Assembly: GCF_003018115.1 (NCBI RefSeq)
Contig: NZ_CP027457.1
Direction: 5' to 3' (one strand)
Source of the DNA: Escherichia coli
GTDB taxonomy: Bacteria; Pseudomonadota; Gammaproteobacteria; Enterobacterales; Enterobacteriaceae
Length of the DNA stretch: 64,000 nt
Below, in pieces: positions 5,696 through 35,832 of this stretch; position 1 is the first letter of the stretch, and every line of letters starts with the position of its first letter. The position numbers and the translations under genes were made by a program. The notes beneath the pieces are model-generated. The model was not told the origin of the DNA. It was given only the letters and a program-made list of their open reading frames with translations, and made no database searches.

Positions 5696-6430
5696 GTGGG
5701 TAATAATTTAATGCAGACGGACCTTTCCGTCTGGGGTATGTATCAGCACGCCGATATTGTCGTTAAGTGCGTGATGATTGGGCTTATTTTGGCCTCCGTA
5801 GTCACCTGGGCAATCTTCTTCAGTAAGAGCGTAGAGTTCTTCAATCAGAAGCGTCGCCTTAAGCGCGAGCAGCAACTGCTGGCTGAAGCGCGTTCCTTAA
5901 ACCAGGCCAACGATATCGCCGCTGATTTTGGTAGCAAAAGCTTAAGCCTGCATTTGCTCAATGAAGCGCAGAATGAGCTGGAACTGTCAGAAGGCAGCGA
6001 CGATAACGAAGGTATTAAAGAACGTACCAGCTTCCGTCTGGAGCGTCGGGTCGCCGCAGTAGGTCGTCAAATGGGCCGCGGTAACGGCTATCTGGCAACC
6101 ATCGGCGCGATTTCGCCGTTCGTTGGTCTGTTTGGTACGGTCTGGGGCATCATGAACAGCTTTATTGGTATCGCGCAAACGCAGACTACTAACCTGGCAG
6201 TCGTTGCGCCGGGTATCGCAGAAGCTCTGTTAGCAACGGCAATCGGCCTCGTGGCAGCGATTCCTGCGGTCGTTATCTATAACGTATTCGCGCGTCAGAT
6301 TGGCGGCTTTAAAGCGATGCTGGGTGATGTCGCAGCGCAGGTATTGTTGCTGCAAAGCCGTGACCTGGATCTGGAAGCCAGCGCCGCTGCGCATCCGGTT
6401 CGTGTCGCACAAAAATTACGTGCAGGATAA
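5696..6430 (+). CDS. exbB: TonB-system energising protein ExbB
   Basis: 244-aa ORF recognised as ExbB; followed 6 nt later by exbD. Confidence 0.95.
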   Translation: MGNNLMQTDLSVWGMYQHADIVVKCVMIGLILASVVTWAIFFSKSVEFFNQKRRLKREQQLLAEARSLNQANDIAADFGSKSLSLHLLNEAQNELELSEGSDDNEGIKERTSFRLERRVAAVGRQMGRGNGYLATIGAISPFVGLFGTVWGIMNSFIGIAQTQTTNLAVVAPGIAEALLATAIGLVAAIPAVVIYNVFARQIGGFKAMLGDVAAQVLLLQSRDLDLEASAAAHPVRVAQKLRAG

Positions 6431-21019: not shown

Positions 21020-21035
21020 TACATGTTGTAGCAAT

Positions 21036-21068
21036 CCCGTACTGATTATGAAGAATAGTCAGTACGGG
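21036..21068 (+). terminator. candidate terminator after gss
   Basis: perfect 10-bp inverted repeat cccgtactga ... tcagtacggg with 13-nt loop; weak U-tract. Confidence 0.35.
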
Positions 21069-21310
21069 GATTAATCAAAATATTCAATATTTATATATTC
21101 AAATATTTATTCATTTCATATGTGAATACATTAACCAGCAGAATGCCTGTGTTCTAATTATTTCTAAAGATTTTTAATGAATGCTTATTGTCTGATACAC
21201 AAGAAATAACACTCTTTTTATCGTTAAAAAATGATATTTCACTTTGCCCACACCGTTAAAGTCACTGATAATGCGTCCGTTCGTAAATTCAAAATGGCGT
21301 AATCTAATAT

Positions 21311-23551: not shown

Positions 23552-23724
23552 GAATATATCCTTAAATTTAAATATCCATCCAAAATATTTATTTGGTTAA
23601 TATGTTTTTATGAAAGCGTAATTCAGGTCAATGTCACAATTAACCATTGTCACAATAAGGTTGAACGGATATTCTGAGCACGGACCACGTAATATTCAAT
23701 ACATTATTTACTGCCGGGTTTTTC

Positions 23725-24438
23725 GTGAATCAACGTAATATGTCAATAATTAATTCCACGCCAGTGCGTGTTATTGCCATTGTAGGATGTGATGGTTCAG
23801 GTAAATCGACCCTCACGGCAAGCCTGGTAAATGAACTGGCAGCAAGAATGCCAACAGAACGCATTTATCTCGGGCAATCGTCCGGGCGAATTGGCGAATG
23901 GATTTCACAGCTCCCTGTTATTGGCGCACCTTTTGGGCGTTATCTGCGAAGTAAAGCGGCACATGTGCACGAAAAGCCCTCAACACCGCCTGGCAATATT
24001 ACTGCGCTGGTTATCTATCTGCTTTTCTGCTGGCGGGCGTACAAGTTTCGCAAAATGTTGTGTAGAAGCCAGCAAGGCCATCTGCTCATCACCGACCGCT
24101 ACCCGCAGGTTGAAGTGCCGGGTTTTCGCTTTGATGGCCCGCAATTGGCAAAAACCACGGGCGGTAACGGTTGGATAAAAATGTTAAGGCAGCGCGAGTT
24201 GAAGCTGTACCAATGGATGGCGTCTTATTTACCCGTATTGTTGATTCGTCTTGGCATTGATGAACAAACCGCGTTTGCGCGTAAACCTGACCACCAACTG
24301 GCAGCGTTACAGGAAAAAATCGCCGTTACGCCGCAATTGACATTCAATGGCGCAAAGATCCTTGAACTGGATGGTCGGCAACCAGCCGATGAAATTCTGC
24401 AAGCGTCACTACGCGCAATTCACGCCGCGCTTTCCTGA
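23725..24438 (+). CDS. yghS: P-loop NTPase/kinase-like protein (YghR/S/T paralog family)
   Basis: 237 aa from GTG start (alternative ATG at 23740); Walker A GCDGSGKST; DRYPQ; ARKPDH motif shared with paralogs. Confidence 0.85.
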   Translation: MNQRNMSIINSTPVRVIAIVGCDGSGKSTLTASLVNELAARMPTERIYLGQSSGRIGEWISQLPVIGAPFGRYLRSKAAHVHEKPSTPPGNITALVIYLLFCWRAYKFRKMLCRSQQGHLLITDRYPQVEVPGFRFDGPQLAKTTGGNGWIKMLRQRELKLYQWMASYLPVLLIRLGIDEQTAFARKPDHQLAALQEKIAVTPQLTFNGAKILELDGRQPADEILQASLRAIHAALS

Positions 24439-24469
24439 TCACCAAAATGGATAGGGGATGATTTAACGA

Positions 24470-25228
24470 ATGGATGCACTACAAACACAAACTGTTATTA
24501 GTACAACCGCGCCACAGCCCAACTACATTCCGGGGCTGATTGCGGTGGTCGGGTGTGATGGCACCGGTAAATCCACACTGACCACCGACCTAGTGAAATC
24601 GCTGCAACAACACTGGCAAACCGAGCGGCGCTATCTGGGGCTGCTCTCCGGCGAAGACGGCGACAAAATCAAACGATTGCCGTTGGTTGGCGTCTGGCTG
24701 GAACGGCGACTGGCGGCCAAATCCTCGAAAACCCAAAGCATGAAAACCAAATCTCCGGCGCTATGGGCGGCGGTGATTATGTACTGCTTCTCGCTGCGAA
24801 GAATGGCGAATCTACGCAAGGTTCAGCGACTGGCGCAAAGTGGCGTTCTGGTGGTCAGCGATCGCTTCCCGCAGGCTGAAATTTCGGGCTTTTATTATGA
24901 CGGACCGGGGATTGGCGTCGAACGTGCGACCGGGAAAATCAGCATGTTTCTGGCGCAGCGCGAACGGCGTTTATACCAACAAATGGCGCAATATCGCCCG
25001 GAATTAATTATTCGCCTGGGCATTGATATTGAGACTGCCATCTCCCGCAAGCCTGACCATGACTATGCCGAGCTGCAGGACAAAATCGGCGTCATGTCGA
25101 CGATTGGCTATAACGGCACAAAAATTCTTGAGATTGATTCCAGAGCGCCCTACAGCGAAGTGCTGGAACAGGCACAGAAGGCGGTTTCTCTGGTTGCCAT
25201 CGCTTCTGACCGCCGAAGTTTAACTTAA
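24470..25228 (+). CDS. yghR: P-loop NTPase/kinase-like protein (YghR/S/T paralog family)
   Basis: 252 aa; Walker A GCDGTGKST; DRFPQ; SRKPDH. Confidence 0.85.
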   Translation: MDALQTQTVISTTAPQPNYIPGLIAVVGCDGTGKSTLTTDLVKSLQQHWQTERRYLGLLSGEDGDKIKRLPLVGVWLERRLAAKSSKTQSMKTKSPALWAAVIMYCFSLRRMANLRKVQRLAQSGVLVVSDRFPQAEISGFYYDGPGIGVERATGKISMFLAQRERRLYQQMAQYRPELIIRLGIDIETAISRKPDHDYAELQDKIGVMSTIGYNGTKILEIDSRAPYSEVLEQAQKAVSLVAIASDRRSLT

Positions 25229-25273
25229 GGCTGGCGGGATACTTTTTACTATCAACGATAAGGTCAGGCTGAA

Positions 25274-26623
25274 TTGGCGGGTTTTAACATCAAACATTGG
25301 TTTGCAGATGGCGCGTTTCGCACCATTATTCGCAATAGCGCCTGGTTAGGCTCCAGTAATGTCGTGAGCGCCTTGCTGGGGCTGTTGGCGCTCTCGTGTG
25401 CCGGTAAAGGGATGACGCCCGCCATGTTTGGCGTACTGGTGATTGTGCAATCGTACGCCAAGTCGATCAGCGATTTTATTAAGTTTCAGACATGGCAGCT
25501 GGTGGTTCAGTACGGAACGCCAGCCTTGACCAACAATAATCCGCAGCAATTTCGCAATGTCGTCTCATTTTCCTTCTCGCTGGATATCGTCAGCGGCGCG
25601 GTGGCGATTGTCGGCGGCATTGCCTTACTGCCATTCCTTTCCCATTCATTAGGTCTGGATGACCAAAGCTTTTGGCTGGCGGCGCTGTATTGCACGCTCA
25701 TTCCTTCAATGGCTTCCTCCACGCCGACCGGCATTCTGCGTGCGGTAGATCGCTTTGATTTGATTGCTGTACAGCAGGCGACGAAACCTTTTCTGCGCGC
25801 AGCGGGGAGCGTCGCAGCCTGGTATTTTGACTTTGGTTTTGCGGGTTTTGTTATTGCCTGGTACGTGTCGAATCTGGTTGGCGGCACCATGTACTGGTGG
25901 TTTGCCGCGCGCGAATTACGCCGCAGAAATATCCATAACGCCTTCAAATTGAATCTGTTTGAGTCTGCCCGACACATTAAAGGCGCGTGGAGTTTTGTCT
26001 GGTCAACCAACATTGCCCACTCCATCTGGTCGGCGCGTAACTCGTGCAGCACAGTGTTGGTGGGGATCGTGTTAGGACCCGCTGCCGCCGGGTTATTTAA
26101 AATCGCCATGACATTCTTCGACGCCGCCGGAACGCCAGCGGGTTTGCTGGGTAAAAGTTTTTACCCAGAGGTGATGCGTTTAGATCCGCGCACCACCAGA
26201 CCGTGGTTGTTAGGCGTGAAGTCCGGTTTACTGGCGGGCGGAATCGGTATTCTGGTGGCGCTCGCGGTGTTGATCGTCGGCAAGCCGCTCATTTCGCTGG
26301 TATTTGGCGTTAAGTATCTCGAAGCGTATGACCTGATTCAGGTGATGCTGGGCGCAATTGTGATCTCGATGCTGGGCTTCCCGCAGGAGTCATTGCTATT
26401 GATGGCGGGAAAACAGCGCGCTTTTCTCGTGGCGCAAACCATCGCCTCAATCGGCTACATCGTATTGCTGTTCATGTTCTGTCATCTGTTTGGCGTGCTG
26501 GGGGCTGCATTTGCTTACTTCGTTGGGCAATGTCTGGATGTGGTGCTCTCGTTAATTCCAACCTTAAAGGCATTTTTTCAGCGCCATTCCTTGCTTTATA
26601 ACGCAGCCGGAGAGAAATCCTGA
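25274..26623 (+). CDS. yghQ: MOP/Wzx-like polytopic membrane flippase-family protein
   Basis: 449-codon hydrophobic ORF from TTG at 25274 (true start may be the internal Met at about 25412); recognised as YghQ-like; stop overlaps the next ORF start (ATGA). Confidence 0.8.
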   Translation: MAGFNIKHWFADGAFRTIIRNSAWLGSSNVVSALLGLLALSCAGKGMTPAMFGVLVIVQSYAKSISDFIKFQTWQLVVQYGTPALTNNNPQQFRNVVSFSFSLDIVSGAVAIVGGIALLPFLSHSLGLDDQSFWLAALYCTLIPSMASSTPTGILRAVDRFDLIAVQQATKPFLRAAGSVAAWYFDFGFAGFVIAWYVSNLVGGTMYWWFAARELRRRNIHNAFKLNLFESARHIKGAWSFVWSTNIAHSIWSARNSCSTVLVGIVLGPAAAGLFKIAMTFFDAAGTPAGLLGKSFYPEVMRLDPRTTRPWLLGVKSGLLAGGIGILVALAVLIVGKPLISLVFGVKYLEAYDLIQVMLGAIVISMLGFPQESLLLMAGKQRAFLVAQTIASIGYIVLLFMFCHLFGVLGAAFAYFVGQCLDVVLSLIPTLKAFFQRHSLLYNAAGEKS

Positions 26624-27447
26624 TGATGAGAAAATATTTCCCGCTTGAGGCGAGCGAGCGTCTATTTGTTGCGATTGAAGAAGATGATGTCGTTGATGCA
26701 CAGGTTAGTTTGCCGCCGACTATTGCACTAAGTTGTACCACCGAAATCATTCATGATAATTACGCGTTATGCCTGCAATTCTGGCTCAATGGCGTTAATC
26801 GTCAGGAATTACTGCGTTTAGTTCGCAAACAAGCCAAAGGCGATGAGCTGACTGCTGATGAGCGCAAACAATTTAAATACATGCGAGCGCGCTACAAGCA
26901 CCTGCGTTTTGCGCAACGGCTGTATTTAAAGAAGCATCAGGCCGGATTTTTATTCGGCAAAACGACCGTTTTTCTGGGACGTTTTCAGGACGGATTTCGT
27001 AACGGTAAGAAAAATATTGTGTCGTATTACGGCAACCTGTTACGAATTTATTTAAGCTCTCCGGTCTGGTCGTTGGTGAACTATTCATTACGCCATAGCC
27101 AGTTAGAAAGCGTAAGCGGTTTTATTGCCTATCGGCAAAAGCAAATGCATACCCTGAAAGAGATTATTGCCAAACCGCGACTAACCGGCAGGGAATTTCA
27201 TGATGTGCGAAAAATCATCAGCCAGCAGGTTTCTTATTACGACACCTTAAGATCGCTTGATCCTGAAAATAAAGAGGCGTTACAGATTTCCCGTTTCCTC
27301 GCCGCCATTAATGGCCTGATGGGGGATAAACACGACGACATGGTAGCGGATGATATGGAAAACCGCCAGTCGTATGATGCACCGGTGGCGCTGGATAGCG
27401 ATATTCGCCAGCGCTTAGAGCTGCTGATTTCGCGTTTTCCGCTATAA
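26623..27447 (+). CDS. hypothetical protein, basic, no recognisable motif
   Basis: 274-aa ORF translationally coupled to yghQ (ATGA overlap); no signal peptide or TM segment apparent. Confidence 0.6.
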   Translation: MMRKYFPLEASERLFVAIEEDDVVDAQVSLPPTIALSCTTEIIHDNYALCLQFWLNGVNRQELLRLVRKQAKGDELTADERKQFKYMRARYKHLRFAQRLYLKKHQAGFLFGKTTVFLGRFQDGFRNGKKNIVSYYGNLLRIYLSSPVWSLVNYSLRHSQLESVSGFIAYRQKQMHTLKEIIAKPRLTGREFHDVRKIISQQVSYYDTLRSLDPENKEALQISRFLAAINGLMGDKHDDMVADDMENRQSYDAPVALDSDIRQRLELLISRFPL

Positions 27448-27455
27448 CCGGAGCA

Positions 27456-28019
27456 ATGATGTCATCTCGTTTGATTATTGCGCTGATTATCATGCTCTTA
27501 GCCCCGGGTGTGCAGGCACACAATTTCGTCACTGGCAAAACGGTTACCCCTGTTTATATTCAGGAAGGCGGCGAGCTGCTTCTGAATAGCGACGACGAAA
27601 TTCACTACCAAAAGTGGAACAGCACACAATTGGCGGGAAAAGTCCGCATTATCCAGTATATCGCCGGGCGTAAGTCGGCGAAGAAAAAGAACTCACTGTT
27701 AATTAAAGCGGTTGAAGCGGCAAACTTTCCGCAGGATCGTTTTCAGCCCACCACCATTGTGAACACCGATGATGCCATCTTTGGTACTGGCTATTTTGTT
27801 GTTGGCAAAATCGAAAAAAATAAACGCCGCTATCCGTGGGCGCAATTCGTTATCGACGGCAATGGACAGGGACGCGTTGCCTGGCGCTTGCCGGAGCAGA
27901 GTTCAACCATTCTGGTGCTGGATAAAGCCGGGCAAATTCAGTGGGCAAAGGACGGCAGCCTGACGCCGGAAGAGGTAGATCATGTCATTGCGCTGGCGCA
28001 GAAACTGATCAATGAATAA
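27456..28019 (+). CDS. secreted/periplasmic protein, YtfJ-family-like
   Basis: 187 aa; N-terminal signal peptide (MMSSRLIIALIIMLLAPGVQA/HN); resembles E. coli YtfJ as recalled (TTIVNTDDAI...YPW..F..D.NG, QWAKDG.LTPEEV). Confidence 0.6.
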   Translation: MMSSRLIIALIIMLLAPGVQAHNFVTGKTVTPVYIQEGGELLLNSDDEIHYQKWNSTQLAGKVRIIQYIAGRKSAKKKNSLLIKAVEAANFPQDRFQPTTIVNTDDAIFGTGYFVVGKIEKNKRRYPWAQFVIDGNGQGRVAWRLPEQSSTILVLDKAGQIQWAKDGSLTPEEVDHVIALAQKLINE

Positions 28020-28049
28020 AAAATTCAAAGGATTGAGGGCGTTAGTGAG

Positions 28050-29120
28050 ATGAAGCTGGTTGAACACTACATCATGCGTGGTACGCGCCGTCTGGTGCTG
28101 ATTATCGTCGGTTTTCTGATCTTTATTTTCGCCAGCTACTCCGCACAGCGTTATCTGACCGAAGCGGCAAATGGGACATTAGCTCTTGATGTTGTGCTGG
28201 ATATCGTTTTCTACAAAGTGCTGATTGCACTGGAGATGTTGTTACCTGTTGGTCTGTATGTGTCAGTTGGCGTGACGCTAGGGCAGATGTATACCGACTC
28301 GGAAATTACCGCTATCTCTGCGGCGGGGGGCAGTCCGGGACGCTTGTACAAAGCCGTTCTTTATCTGGCGATACCGCTAAGTATTTTTGTCACCCTTCTG
28401 TCGATGTATGGTCGTCCGTGGGCTTATGCGCAGATTTATCAACTGGAGCAGCAGTCGCAGTCGGAGCTGGATGTTCGCCAGTTGCGGGCAAAGAAATTTA
28501 ACACTAACGATAACGGACGAATGATCCTTTCGCAGACGGTTGATCAGGATAATAATCGCCTGACTGACGCGCTGATTTATACTTCTACTGCCAATCGAAC
28601 CCGCATTTTCCGCGCCCGTTCGGTTGATGTGGTTGACCCATCACCCGAGAAACCGACCGTTATGTTGCACAACGGCACTGCCTATCTTCTCGATCATCAG
28701 GGTCGTGACGACAACGAACAGATCTACCGTAATCTGCAATTACATCTGAATCCGCTGGATCAAAGCCCTAACGTCAAACGCAAAGCAAAATCGGTCACGG
28801 AGCTGGCGCGCTCCGCCTTTCCTGCCGATCATGCCGAACTGCAATGGCGACAAAGCCGTGGCCTGACAGCATTGTTGATGGCGCTGCTGGCCATTTCATT
28901 AAGTCGGGTAAAACCGCGGCAGGGGCGATTTTCAACGTTATTGCCACTGACGTTGCTGTTTATTGCCATTTTTTATGGCGGCGACGTCTGCCGTACGCTG
29001 GTGGCTAACGGCGCGATTCCTCTCATTCCTGGTTTGTGGTTAGTGCCCGGACTCATGCTAATGGGCCTGCTGATGCTGGTTGCACGCGACTTCACTTTGC
29101 TGCAGAAATTTTCCCGATGA
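28050..29120 (+). CDS. LptF-like permease (YjgP/YjgQ family)
   Basis: 356 aa; N-terminal TM bundle then soluble domain then C-terminal TMs; LGQMYTDSEITAISAAG matches the LptF signature region as recalled (LGKLYTESEITVMHACG). Confidence 0.75.
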   Translation: MKLVEHYIMRGTRRLVLIIVGFLIFIFASYSAQRYLTEAANGTLALDVVLDIVFYKVLIALEMLLPVGLYVSVGVTLGQMYTDSEITAISAAGGSPGRLYKAVLYLAIPLSIFVTLLSMYGRPWAYAQIYQLEQQSQSELDVRQLRAKKFNTNDNGRMILSQTVDQDNNRLTDALIYTSTANRTRIFRARSVDVVDPSPEKPTVMLHNGTAYLLDHQGRDDNEQIYRNLQLHLNPLDQSPNVKRKAKSVTELARSAFPADHAELQWRQSRGLTALLMALLAISLSRVKPRQGRFSTLLPLTLLFIAIFYGGDVCRTLVANGAIPLIPGLWLVPGLMLMGLLMLVARDFTLLQKFSR

Positions 29121-30196
29121 ATGTTTTCAGTCGCTATTTAATCCGTCATCTCTTTCTCGGTTTTGCCGCCGCCGCAGGGCTATTGCTGCCGCTTTTTACC
29201 ACCTTCAACCTGATTAACGAACTGGATGATGTCAGCCCGGGCGGTTATCGCTGGACTCAGGCGGTGCTGGTGGTGCTAATGACCTTACCGCGCACACTGG
29301 TCGAACTTTCGCCGTTTATCGCCTTATTGGGAGGGATTGTCGGCCTGGGGCAGTTATCGAAAAACAGTGAGCTTACCGCCATTCGCAGCATGGGGTTTTC
29401 TATCTTCCGTATTGCACTGGTGGCGCTGGTTGCCGGGATATTGTGGACTGTTTCGTTAGGCGCGATAGATGAGTGGGTAGCGTCGCCGTTGCAGCAACAG
29501 GCGCTGCAAATCAAATCGACCGCCACTGCGTTGGGGGAGGACGATGATATTACCGGCAATATGCTTTGGGCCAGGCGCGGTAATGAATTTGTAACGGTGA
29601 AATCGCTGAACGAGCAGGGCCAGCCGGTGGGCGTGGAGATATTTCATTATCGCGACGATCTCTCGCTCGAATCCTACATTTATGCACGCAGTGCCACCAT
29701 TGAAGACGACAAAACGTGGATCCTGCATGGTGTGAATCATAAAAAATGGCTGAATGGCAAAGAAACGCTGGAAACATTAGATAATCTTGCCTGGCAATCG
29801 GCCTTCACCAGTATGGATCTTGAAGAGTTATCAATGCCGGGCAATACTTTTTCTGTCCGTCAGCTTAATCATTACATCCATTATTTGCAGGAAACCGGGC
29901 AACCCAGCAGCGAATACCGCCTTGCACTGTGGGAAAAACTGGGGCAACCCATCCTGACCCTGGCGATGATTTTGCTGGCTGTGCCGTTTACCTTTAGTGC
30001 CCCGCGCTCGCCAGGGATGGGTAGCCGTCTCGCTGTAGGTGTCATCGTTGGCTTACTCACCTGGATCAGCTATCAAATCATGGTCAATCTGGGATTGCTA
30101 TTTGCGTTGAGCGCACCTGTTACCGCGCTCGGTTTACCGATAGCGTTTGTGCTGGTGGCGTTGAGCCTGGTGTATTGGTATGACAGACAACATTAA
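29117..30196 (+). CDS. LptG-like permease (YjgP/YjgQ family)
   Basis: 359 aa from ATG at 29117 (MNVFSRYLIRH...), overlapping upstream stop by 4 nt; NSELTAIRSMGFS resembles LptG RSELVVMQASGF. Confidence 0.75.
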   Translation: MNVFSRYLIRHLFLGFAAAAGLLLPLFTTFNLINELDDVSPGGYRWTQAVLVVLMTLPRTLVELSPFIALLGGIVGLGQLSKNSELTAIRSMGFSIFRIALVALVAGILWTVSLGAIDEWVASPLQQQALQIKSTATALGEDDDITGNMLWARRGNEFVTVKSLNEQGQPVGVEIFHYRDDLSLESYIYARSATIEDDKTWILHGVNHKKWLNGKETLETLDNLAWQSAFTSMDLEELSMPGNTFSVRQLNHYIHYLQETGQPSSEYRLALWEKLGQPILTLAMILLAVPFTFSAPRSPGMGSRLAVGVIVGLLTWISYQIMVNLGLLFALSAPVTALGLPIAFVLVALSLVYWYDRQH

Positions 30197-30230: not shown

Positions 30231-31403
30231 TTACTGCTTCAGAGTAGCGAACGCTTGAATGATGGCATCAATTTGCTCACGACTGTGGGCAGCGTTTACG
30301 CTACAGCGCAGCAGCGTGATGCCTGCAGGCGCGGCAGGTGGCAGGATAAGATTCACATAAACGCCCAGCGAAATAAGCTCGCGCCAGATGCGTAAACCTT
30401 CCTCTTTCGAACCGATTATTACCGGCACTACCGGGCTAATATGTGAACTTAACTCATAACCCAGTTTTTGCAGACCGTCATACAGATGGTTGGCGTTATC
30501 CATCAGCTTTTGCCGCAGCTCTGGTTGTGTGGCAATGGTTCTTAACGACGAGCGCACGGTCGCAATGCAGGACGGAGAAGGAGAGGCGGTAAAAATATAC
30601 GGGCGGCTGCCGTAGCGCAGCACTTCCATCGCTTCCGAACCGACAGCAAAACCGCCAATCGAGGCCAGACTTTTACTGAAGGTACCAACGATAATATCCA
30701 CATCATCTTCAACGCCAACGGCTTCAGCCAGTCCGCGCCCCGTTGCGCCTAACACGCCAAACGAATGCGCTTCATCGACAATCAAATAACCACCGAGACG
30801 ACGTTTGATATCAACAATTTCCGCCAGCGGCGCAACGTCACCGAGCATGCTGTAGATGCCCTCAACGATGATAATCGCCTCTTTCGCCCGTTCACCGAGG
30901 CGAACCATGCGCCGTTCCAGATCTTTAGCATCGTTATGGCGGAAACGAATAATTTCCGCGCCACCGAGAGAACAGGCGTCATAAATACTGGCGTGGCTGT
31001 CGGCATCCAGTAACACCACGGCGTTATGGTCGGCAAGTGCGCTGATGACGCCTAAATTAGCGGTATAACCGGTTGAAAAAACGATAGCGGTAGGGCGATT
31101 GAAAAACTCGGCAATCTCTTTCTCTAACGCCAGGTGCGGCGCATAACTGCCGTTTGCCATACGAGAACCGGTGGTGCCGGTGCCTTGGGCCGCTAACGCT
31201 GTCTGACCTTCGGCGATGGCATCATGATTAAAGGTTAAACCGAGGTAATTATTGGTCCCGGCCAGAATCACTTTTTTATTGCCGATCCGGCCTTCGGTGG
31301 CGGAATACACTTCATCAATACAGGTGCCAAACGGTGTTAACCCATTGTCACTAAATTGCAGTCGCTCGCCAGCAAGGCGCGCATATTTATCATATAGCCC
31401 CAT
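30231..31403 (-). CDS. alpha-oxoamine synthase family PLP enzyme, serine palmitoyltransferase-like
   Basis: 390 aa; class-II aminotransferase fold with PLP-lysine motif GTFSKSLASIGGF; encoded immediately downstream of a dedicated ACP. Confidence 0.8.
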   Translation of the reverse strand: MGLYDKYARLAGERLQFSDNGLTPFGTCIDEVYSATEGRIGNKKVILAGTNNYLGLTFNHDAIAEGQTALAAQGTGTTGSRMANGSYAPHLALEKEIAEFFNRPTAIVFSTGYTANLGVISALADHNAVVLLDADSHASIYDACSLGGAEIIRFRHNDAKDLERRMVRLGERAKEAIIIVEGIYSMLGDVAPLAEIVDIKRRLGGYLIVDEAHSFGVLGATGRGLAEAVGVEDDVDIIVGTFSKSLASIGGFAVGSEAMEVLRYGSRPYIFTASPSPSCIATVRSSLRTIATQPELRQKLMDNANHLYDGLQKLGYELSSHISPVVPVIIGSKEEGLRIWRELISLGVYVNLILPPAAPAGITLLRCSVNAAHSREQIDAIIQAFATLKQ

Positions 31404-31651
31404 TATTTATTCTCCAGCCATGGAAGTAGAGTTTCCATTAATTGCGCAGGGGTTTTGACATCCAGCAGAATATTAATAGGAATGGAAATATCGAATCTGT
31501 CTTCCAGCATCATTAAGAGATCCATCACTTTGATCGACTCCAGGCCAAGATCGTTGACGAGATCGCTGTCGGGCTTAATTTCCACACCGTTTTCGACCAA
31601 ATCCTGTAAACAGGAAAGGATGTAATCCATTACTATTTCACGATTTACCAT
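31403..31651 (-). CDS. acyl carrier protein
   Basis: 82 aa, acidic; phosphopantetheine-site motif DLGLESI; shares a boundary nucleotide with the downstream synthase gene. Confidence 0.75.
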   Translation of the reverse strand: MVNREIVMDYILSCLQDLVENGVEIKPDSDLVNDLGLESIKVMDLLMMLEDRFDISIPINILLDVKTPAQLMETLLPWLENK

Positions 31652-31682
31652 AGAAACGTTAACACACCTTTAAACAAGACAA

Positions 31683-32597
31683 TCAAAATAGCCCGTTGCG
31701 TAATGCGTGTTCCAGGCTAATCCCGGGAAACCAATTAATATCTTCAGAAATACGGTTATTACTTGCCGACCAGTCGGCGTGGGTTAATTCACGAATTTTC
31801 GAGCGGGTCAGCATAGGTTCTTTACCTGCCAGGCGGCTCAACGCGGTACTGATATCCGCAAGGCAGGTGAGTACCGGCAGAGGAATGCCAACCATTCGCA
31901 CGGAACCACAACGGGCGTCGGCGGCAAGTTGCTGTACGCGTTGCCAGTCATAGCCGCCAGCGACGCCATCGCATAATTCATAGGTTTGCGTCTGTACAGT
32001 TTCGGCGCTTAACCACTGACCCACTGCTTGCGCGAAATCGGTGACGTGCAGGAAAGAGAGCTGTGTATCTGGCGCACCAAGTCGTGGCAGCAGGCCGCGC
32101 AGCATCCAGTCAAACAGCGGTTTTAACTCTTTATCGCCGGGGCCATACACGGCTGTCGGGCGAAAAACGCCCAGCGTAATTTTGTCAGCCATTGCAGTCA
32201 GCCGTTGTTCGGCGACGTATTTGGAATTTGCGTACCAGGAGAGTTCGGGATGGCGCGCCGCCAGCGAAGAGATAAACAGAAAACGTTGGCAAAAACCGCT
32301 CTCTTTTGCCGCCTGCATCAGGCGCAGACTGCCGTCAACGTTACAGCGGGTGAAAATCTCTTCTTTGTGCCCGCGCACTTGTCCGGCGCAATGAACCACC
32401 GCGCTGGCTCCGGCAACCAGTTCGCTAAGCGAATGTGTATCTTCCAGCGAACCGCGCACCCAGGTGAGATTATCATTGACGTGAGCGCGGGCAGTACGCG
32501 TCAATGCGCGAACGTGAAAGCCGCGGGCGAGCAGGTTATTGATAATATATTTACCGATAAACCCGGTAGCGCCCGTCACCGCGACAGTTTGATTCAT
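31683..32597 (-). CDS. NAD(P)-dependent epimerase/dehydratase-family SDR (candidate keto-reductase)
   Basis: 304 aa; N-terminal Rossmann motif VTGATGFIGK; start overlaps stop of upstream acyl-ACP synthetase (ATGA). Confidence 0.8.
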   Translation of the reverse strand: MNQTVAVTGATGFIGKYIINNLLARGFHVRALTRTARAHVNDNLTWVRGSLEDTHSLSELVAGASAVVHCAGQVRGHKEEIFTRCNVDGSLRLMQAAKESGFCQRFLFISSLAARHPELSWYANSKYVAEQRLTAMADKITLGVFRPTAVYGPGDKELKPLFDWMLRGLLPRLGAPDTQLSFLHVTDFAQAVGQWLSAETVQTQTYELCDGVAGGYDWQRVQQLAADARCGSVRMVGIPLPVLTCLADISTALSRLAGKEPMLTRSKIRELTHADWSASNNRISEDINWFPGISLEHALRNGLF

Positions 32598-34327
32598 GCC
32601 AGGGATTCCTGCACATGAAGGCTTGCAGCATAAGCCTTCTGATAACGTTTTTTCGCTTCCGCACGGGCAGGCTTGCCGGAGGACGTTCGGGGAATGCTGT
32701 GGGGCGGCAACAGATCGATAGCCGCGGTCACGCCAAATTCGCTTTGGATCCGTGCTGCCAGCGCGTGGATAAGCTGCCCGCGACGTTCTTCATCGCTGAT
32801 CCGACACTGGATCTGCAAAATGATTTTTTCCTGGGCGGTAACAAAAGCAATCGCATCGCCAGAATGAATTTCCGGTTCCTGTTCCGCTATATATTCAATA
32901 TCCTGCGGCCAGATATTACGGCCACGAATAATAATCAGATCTTTAATGCGTCCGGTGACATACAGATAACCGTCCAGCAGATAACCGAGGTCGCCAGTGT
33001 CTAACCAGCCCGTCGCGGCAATCTCGTCTTGCGAAGCCTGGTCGCCAAAGTAACCGCTCATCAGACTGGGACCGGAGATGCAAATATGGCCTACCACACG
33101 TTCCGCGACCGGCATACCTGCTTCATTGCGGATTTCAATACCATGTTCCGGCAACGCTTTGCCGCAGTTGACGAAAGTCGATACGGCGCGTGTCTCTGCA
33201 CCCGGCGCGACGGCTTTACCCTGATATTCGAGGATGTCGCGATCCACTTCGTTAACCACAACCCCGGAGGCTTCATCAGAGAAGCTGACAGCCAGCGCAT
33301 TTTCTGCCAGTCCGTAGCACGGCATGAAAGTTTTATTGTCAAAGTTAACCTGACGGAAACATTCAGCGAATTGATGGAGTTGTTCTGCGGAGATGGGTTC
33401 TGCACCAATACCAGCGACGCGCCAGCAGGAAAGATCCAGTTCAGCGAGATCTTTTTCATTCACGCGGCGCTGGCACAATTCATAGCCAAACGGCGGCGCA
33501 ACGGAAACGGTGCCGCGATTTTTACTGATCAATTTAAGCCATTGCAGAGGACGCATGGCAAAATCCTGAGTGCGCAAATAATCTACTGAAAGTTGCGTGG
33601 CGACGGGGGTCAGGAGAAAGCCGACCAGTCCCATATCATGGTAGAAAGGCAGCCAGGAGACGCAGCGGTCGCCAGGGCGTAATTTAATGCCATCGTGGCT
33701 TATGGCGCGTAGATTAGCCATCACTTCGCGGTGAGTGATAATGACGCCACGGGGAAAACGGGTGCTGCCGGAGGTGTACTGGAGGTAGGCGATATCGTTC
33801 GGAACTGGACGCTGGAGCGCAACATCGGCTTCCGGTAATGCCTTAAACCAGGCGTGGCTTAAAACATGTAATTCGGGGTTGTTGTTATGCGTCGCGGCAT
33901 TGACCAGCGGTAACCACTCATCACCAGTGATAATGGCTGCGGGCTGGCAACTTGCCAGTAAACCCTGCAGTTTGGCGCTCCAGGAATCCCGCTGACCGAC
34001 GCCCATTGGAATCGCCAATGGTACGGCAACTAATCCAGCATACTGACAGGCAAAAAATGCCTCGACAAACCCGCTACTGGTTTCGGCAATCAGCGCCACG
34101 CGATCGCCTTTTTTCAGGTTTAGCGATAACAACCGCTTCGCACCAGCTTCGGCACGCGCTTTTAACGTCTGATATTCCAGTTGATCTTCAAGTTGGCAAC
34201 GTCTGTCATAAAAATTCATTCCAGCGCTACTCAGAGCGGCGTAGTCCAAAGCATCAACCAGCGTTGGAAAATCGGCATAGCGCATAGGTAGGGAATGCGT
34301 AAAGATTTTATTAGACATATACACCAC
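32594..34327 (-). CDS. fatty acyl-AMP ligase / acyl-ACP synthetase (adenylate-forming enzyme)
   Basis: 577 aa; AMP-binding core motif YTSGSTRFPRGV and downstream GYG/TGD adenylation motifs; first gene of a 4-gene minus-strand operon. Confidence 0.8.
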   Translation of the reverse strand: MVYMSNKIFTHSLPMRYADFPTLVDALDYAALSSAGMNFYDRRCQLEDQLEYQTLKARAEAGAKRLLSLNLKKGDRVALIAETSSGFVEAFFACQYAGLVAVPLAIPMGVGQRDSWSAKLQGLLASCQPAAIITGDEWLPLVNAATHNNNPELHVLSHAWFKALPEADVALQRPVPNDIAYLQYTSGSTRFPRGVIITHREVMANLRAISHDGIKLRPGDRCVSWLPFYHDMGLVGFLLTPVATQLSVDYLRTQDFAMRPLQWLKLISKNRGTVSVAPPFGYELCQRRVNEKDLAELDLSCWRVAGIGAEPISAEQLHQFAECFRQVNFDNKTFMPCYGLAENALAVSFSDEASGVVVNEVDRDILEYQGKAVAPGAETRAVSTFVNCGKALPEHGIEIRNEAGMPVAERVVGHICISGPSLMSGYFGDQASQDEIAATGWLDTGDLGYLLDGYLYVTGRIKDLIIIRGRNIWPQDIEYIAEQEPEIHSGDAIAFVTAQEKIILQIQCRISDEERRGQLIHALAARIQSEFGVTAAIDLLPPHSIPRTSSGKPARAEAKKRYQKAYAASLHVQESLA

Positions 34328-34689
34328 GAAAAAATTGGATATCCAAAATAAAATGACAATAATGCGGTGGATTATATAGGCATAAAAGATAAATGAGATA
34401 GTATTTTCATCAGTGTGAAAATGAACATTGATTTAAATAATGAGTTTAAGTTTTTTTGTTTTTATTGTGAATGATATTTAATTTATGAATATATTAAGAA
34501 GAAGCCTTGTCCGGTCGCCTTAAATCGACAAAAGGCATTGTGGCGCTTCTGTGTAGTCGCTGACCTTATCGTAATCATTAATAAATACTATTTATTCGTC
34601 GTTTGTATTCATTGGGTTGATTATTAAGGTGCCGTTCGTTGCTGTTGCAACCTGTTTGTCACCGTTAATTATTTGTTACCCACAGAACT
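34328..34689. promoter_or_regulatory. AT-rich divergent control region (lipid operon / yghO)
   Basis: 362-bp intergenic region of markedly low GC between divergently oriented genes. Confidence 0.45.
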
Positions 34690-35832
34690 ATGGAATGCGA
34701 TCTGCTGATGATTAAAATTGAAAAAGTAATAAATAAAAACGACTTAAAGGCATTTATCGCTTTTCCGTCATCACTTTATCCCGACGATCCAAACTGGATA
34801 CCCCCTTTATTCATTGAACGCAACGAGCATTTGTCTGCGAAAAATCCGGGGACGGACCATATCATCTGGCAGGCGTGGGTGGCAAAAAAAGCGGGGCAGA
34901 TAGTTGGGCGTATTACCGCGCAAATAGATACCTTGCACCGCGAGCGTTACGGCAAAGATACCGGTCATTTCGGCATGATTGACGCCATTGATGATCCGCA
35001 GGTTTTTGCCGCGTTGTTTGGCGCAGCGGAAGCGTGGTTGAAGTCCCAAGGTGCAAGTAAGATCAGCGGTCCTTTCAGCCTGAATATCAATCAGGAAAGC
35101 GGATTACTGATTGAAGGTTTTGACACACCACCCTGTGCGATGATGCCACACGGCAAACCGTGGTATGCCGCGCATATTGAACAACTGGGTTATCACAAAG
35201 GCATTGATTTACTGGCGTGGTGGATGCAGCGAACCGATCTCACTTTCTCTCCGGCGCTAAAAAAACTGATGGATCAGGTGCGCAAAAAGGTGACCATTCG
35301 CTGCATCAATCGCCAGCGGTTTGCCGAAGAGATGCAGATCCTGCGTGAGATTTTCAACTCTGGCTGGCAACACAACTGGGGATTTGTGCCGTTTACCGAA
35401 CATGAATTCGCGACCATGGGCGATCAACTTAAATATCTGGTGCCGGACGATATGATCTACATCGCTGAGATTGATTCTGCACCCTGCGCGTTTATTGTCG
35501 GCTTGCCGAACATCAACGAGGCGATTGCCGATCTGAACGGATCGCTCTTTCCCTTCGGCTGGGCAAAATTGCTGTGGCGTTTGAAAGTCAGCGGTGTGCG
35601 AACTGCGCGAGTACCGCTGATGGGCGTGCGCGACGAGTATCAGTTCAGCCGCATCGGCCCGGTGATTGCGCTGTTATTGATTGAAGCCTTACGCGATCCG
35701 TTTGCCCGCCGGAAGATCGATGCGCTGGAGATGTCATGGATCCTCGAAACCAATACAGGCATGAATAACATGCTGGAACGCATTGGGGCGGAGCCGTACA
35801 AGCGTTACCGATTGTATGAAAAGCAGATTTAA
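34690..35832 (+). CDS. yghO: GNAT-superfamily-like acyltransferase (full-length YghO)
   Basis: 380-codon ORF (start possibly at internal Met, 34708); position corresponds to yghO next to glcC; acyltransferase assignment is tentative. Confidence 0.65.
   Translation: MECDLLMIKIEKVINKNDLKAFIAFPSSLYPDDPNWIPPLFIERNEHLSAKNPGTDHIIWQAWVAKKAGQIVGRITAQIDTLHRERYGKDTGHFGMIDAIDDPQVFAALFGAAEAWLKSQGASKISGPFSLNINQESGLLIEGFDTPPCAMMPHGKPWYAAHIEQLGYHKGIDLLAWWMQRTDLTFSPALKKLMDQVRKKVTIRCINRQRFAEEMQILREIFNSGWQHNWGFVPFTEHEFATMGDQLKYLVPDDMIYIAEIDSAPCAFIVGLPNINEAIADLNGSLFPFGWAKLLWRLKVSGVRTARVPLMGVRDEYQFSRIGPVIALLLIEALRDPFARRKIDALEMSWILETNTGMNNMLERIGAEPYKRYRLYEKQI

Follow-up and report, generated by a model that had tools for sequence, protein, structure and literature searches.

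The AT-rich stretch between aasR and yghO is the shared divergent regulatory region of a five-gene (dihydro)ceramide set in which yghO is the fifth gene of the pathway. It is a real and functional conserved control region, an ordinary kind of element in an under-studied pathway. The stretch lies in a 64-kb window (the whole 64,000 nucleotides of E. coli DNA analysed herein) with the gene order hyb - gss - pitB - yghT/S/R/Q ... glc - sslE - gsp, and its features are collected in Table 1. As to its architecture, we lean modestly towards a predicted arrangement of a weak aasR promoter, an operator, a yghO promoter and an H-NS-held tract, a reading drawn from sequence comparison.

Several lines of evidence identify the flanking genes as parts of one pathway. 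First, spt matches the NCBIfam equivalog NF047599 (600 bits against a cut-off of 500) and aasR matches NF006624 (FAAL; 874 bits against a cut-off of 600), and PP-binding and Epimerase domains, corresponding to the acyl carrier protein and the SDR reductase, were detected in the cluster. Second, the same genes of BL21(DE3) were studied as aasR, epi, acpR and spt by Padilla-Gomez et al. (2022), who reported that over-expressed E. coli SPT, AcpR and AasR together make 3-oxo-sphinganine (PMC9386255). Third, yghO, which has no match in Pfam or NCBIfam, was listed in the same report as a homologue of Caulobacter CC_1154, an N-acyltransferase needed for dihydroceramide synthesis (PMC9386255), and its AlphaFold model (pLDDT 73.5) resembles tandem-GNAT N-acyltransferases (E=4e-15). 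The homology to CC_1154, the GNAT fold and the kept synteny of yghO indicate that the region parts two halves of one pathway; yghO is thus the fifth ceramide-pathway gene and not a mere neighbour of the lipid operon, as the sequence-only reading had treated it. In other words, spt is preceded by acpR, aasR and the SDR reductase gene lie nearby, and the N-acyltransferase is supplied by yghO. The ceramide cluster of Caulobacter crescentus (CC_1154 bCerS/aca ... CC_1162 spt, CC_1163 acpR, CC_1164 epi/CerR, CC_1165 aasR) has these five enzyme types in common with the present one, whereas in Enterobacterales the N-acyltransferase gene stands head-to-head with aasR and one control region is common to both.

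Some further observations concern the surrounding genes. The acpR gene (31403-31651) is markedly AT-richer than its operon neighbours (40.6% against 52-55% GC). In strain F9792, the closest complete genome (99.9% identical here), a C>T change at 33981 produces aasR W113*, which is a natural loss-of-function allele; the window copy is intact. Converging on spt is a plus-strand operon (23725-30196) that encodes the P-loop kinase-like YghS and YghR, the Wzx-type flippase YghQ, an unknown protein, a member of the YtfJ family, and proteins paralogous to LptF and LptG, the permeases of LPS export (Pfam PF03739, E=4e-54 and 1e-69). We hypothesize that this operon might be a dedicated sphingolipid export or modification system.

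Table 1. Features of the aasR-yghO control region and its surroundings. Positions are those of the window, except where an L number denotes an orthologous locus in another genome.
Feature	Position	Strand	Basis or remark
Operon of aasR (fatty acyl-AMP/ACP ligase), epi (SDR reductase), acpR (acyl carrier protein) and spt (serine palmitoyltransferase)	30231..34318	-	Pfam and NCBIfam; PMC9386255
Non-coding gap, with aasR reading leftwards and yghO rightwards from it	34319..34689	.	ORFs, and RefSeq annotation of genomes nearly identical to the window
Conserved block A, predicted to hold the 5' leader of aasR, its core promoter and, upstream, an operator region	34319..34440	-	122 bp, 92-95% identical to cryptic-clade Escherichia
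Shine-Dalgarno-like GGTG, 5' of the aasR start codon (ATG 34318-34316)	34322..34325	-	Sequence reading; cross-genus conservation
AT-rich core, 21% GC, with abundant TpA-containing A/T 8-mers; predicted H-NS nucleation zone	34328..34500	.	
Candidate aasR promoter ATCTCA-17-TATAAT	34399-34371	-	Predicted start ~34364, leader ~46 nt; invariant in Escherichia
Perfect -10 hexamer TATAAT, aasR strand	34371..34376	-	PWM 10.7; invariant in 7 Escherichia sequences
Weak -35-like hexamer ATCTCA (3/6), 17 bp 5' of TATAAT	34394..34399	-	Invariant
Second aasR-strand promoter-like site TTCACA-17-TAAACT	34443..34471	-	Predicted start ~34436; -10 not conserved
Conserved block B with candidate yghO promoter	34464..34499	+	86-100% identical across Escherichia
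Candidate yghO promoter GTGAAT (34467-34472)-17-TATATT (34490-34495)	34467-34495	+	PWM 10.0; in block B; predicted start ~34502
GC-richer centre (~47% GC), fastest-evolving part	34500..34564	.	Two most divergent Escherichia sequences 43-58% identical here
Moderately conserved yghO-proximal blocks	34565..34645	+	
Weak hairpin followed by T-rich tail	34638-34651	+	Partly deleted in two cryptic-clade sequences
yghO, tandem-GNAT N-acyltransferase, homologue of Caulobacter CC_1154 ('aca')	34690..35832	+	PMC9386255; AlphaFold model
Right-hand junction of the K-12 IS5-linked deletion (yghQ 3' end to yghO 5' end, whole control region gone)	34727..34732	.	
PhoP-box-like repeats	L017:3602-3618, L024:3609-3625, L026:3625-3641, L042:3603-3619, L043:3607-3623, L048:3601-3617, L051:3621-3637	-	
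GCATTAAGTGGTAAAA, examples	L013:3885-3900, L024:3680-3695, L026:3698-3713, L016:3510-3525	+	

The limits of the gap depend on the start codons of the two genes. The left gene, aasR, most likely starts at ATG 34318 and not at GTG 34327; the ATG is preceded by the GGTG Shine-Dalgarno, is conserved across genera and is the PGAP start in some genomes, and tblastn alignments in other genera begin at residue 1 of the ORF from this codon. Similarly, the probable start of yghO is ATG 34708, conserved across genera and preceded by an AAGG Shine-Dalgarno, rather than the annotated 34690. With these corrections the gap extends over 34319-34689 or, if yghO begins at ATG 34708, over 34319-34707. The RefSeq start calls for the ligase disagree, being equivalent to 34318 or 34285 (window 34285-34327). 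Just 5' of the annotated yghO ATG, at 34681-34689, there is a copy-number polymorphism of the 5-bp unit ACAGA, of which BL21(DE3) and strain YL3 have two copies and the window one.

The compositional claims of the sequence-only reading were borne out. The stretch 34328-34689, described there as conspicuously AT-rich with many A/T runs, has 31.5% GC against a window mean of 52.2% (31.8% for the whole gap), and it contains nine runs of at least four A or four T and eleven all-A/T runs of at least 8 nt. The windowed-GC check that had been suggested was performed: 362-bp windows have a standard deviation of 5.0, only 0.75% of them are equally AT-rich, and the stretch ranks third among the distinct AT-rich regions of the 64 kb. 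The GC content is uneven within the stretch, at 21% in 34328-34500, 47% in the centre (34500-34580) and 36% in 34580-34689, and low GC (below 40% in 100-bp windows) reaches into both coding 5' ends, from about 34247 to 34827. Equally AT-rich promoter-bearing intergenic regions (29-31% GC) are present elsewhere in the window, namely gss-pitB (21020-21310), yghT-yghS (23552-23724) and glcA-sslE (45278-45761).

Conservation within the genus was assessed in seven Escherichia sequences, including the cryptic clades and E. whittamii, with the window as the reference for identities. These alignments show blocks A and B (Table 1) to be under purifying selection within Escherichia. In the comparisons in which block A is so well kept, identity at the four-fold degenerate sites of aasR is only 65-81%. 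Over the 60 codons that begin aasR, beside the block, the identity at such sites is 68-71% in three of the four comparisons (93% in the fourth, locus L009), and the low values argue against recent import of the block by recombination. The centre, 34500-34564, is likely a spacer or a leader free of sequence constraint. Two symmetrical elements were considered and set aside as not conserved between strains, namely a 7-6-7 inverted repeat at 34403-34422 and the 12-bp palindrome TTGGATATCCAA at 34335-34346.

The proposal of a divergent control region is supported, in that the genes on either side are transcribed away from each other and the gap contains the best sigma-70-like matches of both strands. 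A sigma-70 PWM scan of the window, with matrix values from the literature, gave 21 matches of at least 10 bits in the whole 64 kb, three of which (10.0-11.8 bits) fall in these 371 bp. The number of promoter-like sites in the region is no higher than in dinucleotide-preserving shuffles (2 found, 3.0 expected), so the promoter calls rest on conservation and not on statistics. A -10-like element is found at the position of the aasR-strand TATAAT in Hafnia, C. amalonaticus and Pseudocitrobacter as well, and the poor -35 beside a perfect -10 suggests that the aasR promoter depends on an activator. The second aasR-strand site has a -35 that overlaps the -35 of the plus-strand candidate and a -10 that varies by strain (CAAACT in BL21(DE3)). 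The arrangement resembles that of bidirectional bacterial promoter regions, with two divergent candidates about 140 bp apart and a third candidate whose -35 overlaps that of the opposite strand; it differs from them in that the overlapping pair is not conserved here and the starts are predicted from sequence.

The distribution of the locus does not agree with that of an accessory AT-rich island. About 4,139 of the 5,426 complete E. coli genomes (~76%) carry the intergenic region, and in a scan of one genome per species the layout, with spt, acpR, epi and aasR reading leftwards and yghO rightwards, was found in one Pseudomonas and about 40 species of Enterobacterales. Across 46 loci the intergenic length is 270-1,095 bp, and the intergenic GC is below that of the flanking genes in every case (46 of 46, median difference 17 points). 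The cluster genes themselves have 50-55% GC, acpR (41%) excepted. Ordinary gene GC together with wide distribution indicates that the locus is not an AT-rich accessory island; nor are the genes AT-rich, horizontally acquired bodies of the kind subject to xenogeneic silencing, since their GC is 50-55% and they occur in many genera. Two further yghO sequences were also seen. In Shimwellia pseudoproteus a second contig (L035) carries another yghO paralogue (74% identity), whose 4-kb flanks contain no match to spt, acpR, epi or aasR, and a 430-bp Macrococcus sp. contig (L050), 99% identical to E. coli yghO, is probably contamination.

The region is absent from K-12 through an IS5-linked deletion that runs from yghQ to about 34729. 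In DH10B, IS5 lies between a truncated yghQ and a 5'-truncated yghO (L002:4800-4812, 5995-6005), and the 4-mers flanking it differ (TTAG versus TTAA). The mismatch indicates the loss of about 8.9 kb in an IS5-associated deletion and not a simple insertion. The deletion removed the 23725-30196 operon from the yghQ 3' end onwards, plus the ceramide genes, and the first codons of the K-12 'YghO' derive from IS5 sequence. Circumstantially in favour of H-NS, the AT-rich zone has the K-12 IS5 at its edge, and IS5-family insertion hotspots have been found to coincide with H-NS-bound DNA (PMC11335895).

H-NS silencing, as suggested by the sequence-only reading, is plausible and remains our best single guess for the region, one that we think somewhat probable on compositional grounds. 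First, the lowest-GC 150 bp in all 64 kb (34345-34494, 20.7% GC) lies here, and high AT content thus extends over at least 150 bp, as is looked for in H-NS targets. Second, A/T-rich 8-mers with TpA number 108 in the 371 bp of 34364-34734, against a window mean of 11.6 (sd 14.4), which is the top rank in the window. The TpA-rich A/T tracts of the region are on par with those of gss-pitB and glcA-sslE, and yghT-yghS (23552-23724) also ranks with the stretch in this respect, making all three, from their composition, further candidate H-NS targets. The H-NS nucleation 10-mer TCGATAAATT (consensus tCGATAAATT) has one match in the region, with two mismatches (34480-34489), and is not enriched window-wide (64 matches against 60 expected). 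The curvature predicted by a wedge model has a mean of 3.05 deg/turn, equal to background, and its peak of 8.3 at about 34397 is matched by 55% of composition-matched shuffles. Moreover, long H-NS filaments are not expected on so short an AT tract (~0.2-0.6 kb) between genes of 50-55% GC, and the nucleotide-level conservation of 122 bp exceeds the needs of H-NS, which points to sequence-specific factors as well.

The bgl and proU promoter regions are H-NS-repressed AT-rich regions of E. coli, and the yghJ/sslE-T2SS-beta promoter, within the same window, is presumably another. The present region resembles them in having a short AT- and TpA-rich tract over the promoters of conditional envelope-related genes, and its composition is on par with the glcA-sslE region. 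It differs from them in that the flanking ceramide genes are neither AT-rich nor recently acquired, no distinctive signal is seen in the predicted curvature or the nucleation motif, and conservation goes beyond what H-NS requires. A literature search found no H-NS, transcription start or expression data for the locus; the H-NS ChIP-seq dataset of ETEC H10407 (E-MTAB-2917) consists of raw reads only.

The suggestion that the operon may be silent in laboratory culture has indirect published support. Between BL21(DE3) and the window, the intergenic region shows two substitutions and a difference of one 5-bp repeat. Empty-vector extracts of BL21(DE3) have no SPT activity, with no 3-oxo-sphinganine being formed even with acyl-AcpR as the substrate; over-expression of SPT alone or of AcpR/AasR alone leaves the lipid profile unchanged, and cells without the plasmid-borne genes yield no sphingoid products (PMC9386255). 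With so similar a control region and no SPT activity, these results suggest that the native chromosomal operon has no detectable activity in LB at 30 C. The same authors speculated about a possible action of chromosomal epi and yghO on over-produced intermediates in BL21 (PMC9386255); if so, the region would not be fully silent.

Low activity in rich medium might instead arise if the region were an ordinary AT-rich promoter region in which H-NS has no meaningful role and aasR is low because the activator that binds block A is absent or inactive in that medium. We regard this as possible rather than probable. The weak -35 (3/6) beside a perfect -10 would be expected of such a promoter, as would conservation of 122 bp at the nucleotide level, which composition-driven H-NS binding does not require; the nearby promoter-bearing intergenic regions are equally AT-rich (29-31% GC), and the orthologous regions of other genera hold specific motifs, the PhoP box and GCATTAAGTGGTAAAA. 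However, no recognisable binding site was found in block A, and the 21%-GC, TpA-rich tract is the type of DNA that H-NS prefers. Candidate regulators were examined individually. For CRP only a TGTGA half-site was seen by eye, and the CRP ChIP tables of ETEC H10407 have no entry matching ygh, glc, pitB or gss. For Fur there is no match within three mismatches in the region; the only match in the window, 16/19 to the consensus, lies within the gspG coding sequence (58055-58073, minus strand) and is probably due to chance.

Comparison with other genera reveals a different set of elements. The E. coli region has no homology to the longer ones of other genera past the first ~60 nt beside aasR, which hold the ~40-nt leader and the -10-like element. 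In seven orthologous regions a perfect TGTTTA-N5-TGTTTA repeat is found on the aasR strand at homologous positions, with invariant hexamers and varying N5 spacers, against a chance expectation of about 0.03 per region. The bearers are Serratia (three species), Tatumella (two), Klebsiella indica and Pantoea brenneri, and Pantoea A4 has an 11/12 match there. These regions are like the PhoP-box promoters of outer-membrane remodelling genes in Enterobacteriaceae, (T/G)GTTTA-N5-(T/G)GTTTA, and differ from them in that no consistent -10 lies at the canonical distance, even in the box-bearing genera. From these repeats, the ceramide genes of Serratia, Pantoea and Tatumella are predicted to be PhoP-controlled; a literature search found no link between PhoP and serine palmitoyltransferase in bacteria. 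In addition, the 16-nt motif GCATTAAGTGGTAAAA, on the plus strand in the direction of yghO, occurs with at most two mismatches in 17 orthologous regions of many genera, and was not found in Escherichia, Pseudocitrobacter, C. youngae, Rosenbergiella or Pseudomonas. The RNA consensus structure for this cross-genus motif block has zero pairs, so GCATTAAGTGGTAAAA is probably a DNA site bound by protein.

The perfect boxes on the aasR strand in seven orthologous regions, with 11/12 in Pantoea A4, raise the question of whether the E. coli operon is also PhoP-activated, through a degenerate box hidden in the AT-rich region. This is very unlikely, as the box is absent from the E. coli region (best match 9/12), the region is not homologous to the box-bearing blocks, and the box is also missing from the orthologous regions of Citrobacter, Pseudocitrobacter, Hafnia and Erwinia. 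We find it similarly hard to accept that the conserved part is a cis-regulatory RNA (riboswitch, thermometer or leader), a small RNA or a peptide. Such an element might require a long leader, as predicted for yghO (~190 nt), or one kept across genera, like the 46-nt leader of aasR, but the folding z-scores of the putative leaders (+0.36 and -0.80) show them to be no more stable than shuffles, and evolution is fastest in the centre of the putative yghO leader. Moreover, an Rfam scan of the stretch gave no match at E<=1, no conserved ORF of at least 20 aa was found, and the repeats are limited to short pairs at chance level, so none of these accounts for the stretch. Finally, it is scarcely credible that the stretch is a spacer with no function, AT-rich only through the mutational bias of non-coding DNA: the centre at 34500-34564 does evolve at or above the synonymous rate and the region has no sequence similarity to other genera, but conservation in blocks A and B far exceeds that of adjacent synonymous sites, and both flanking genes need promoters for which no other space is available.

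Herein, we propose a mechanism in which promoters, operator and H-NS act together in the divergent region. First, the aasR operon would be transcribed from the invariant TATAAT (34376-34371), starting at about 34364, and with its poor -35 this promoter would be weak unless an activator assisted it. Upstream of it, the conserved 60-70 bp would serve as the operator for one or more factors. Second, yghO would be transcribed from GTGAAT-17-TATATT, starting at about 34502, with a leader of about 190-205 nt. The two promoters would thus stand back to back, about 140 bp apart, both inside the 21%-GC TpA-rich tract. Third, H-NS (and StpA) probably coat this tract, and both units would be kept very low in laboratory culture until a signal relieves the repression. 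A bolder version, which we put forward as speculation and think unlikely, is that Escherichia swapped an ancestral 600-800-bp module, with the PhoP box and GCATTAAGTGGTAAAA, for a lineage-specific conserved 122-bp AT-rich operator, which together with H-NS would keep ceramide off in culture, both units being switched on by a possibly host-associated signal.

E. coli is the textbook bacterium without sphingolipids. About three-quarters of the complete E. coli genomes hold an intact, purifying-selected ceramide gene set that K-12 has lost, and if the operator swap were true, most natural E. coli could make sphingolipids conditionally, in a way never visible in laboratory K-12. Knowledge of the positions of the promoters and the operator, and of whether H-NS represses them, would make the timing of ceramide synthesis in E. 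coli testable. In the wider family, the predicted PhoP boxes of Serratia, Pantoea and Tatumella suggest that sphingolipid synthesis may be tied to envelope-stress remodelling.
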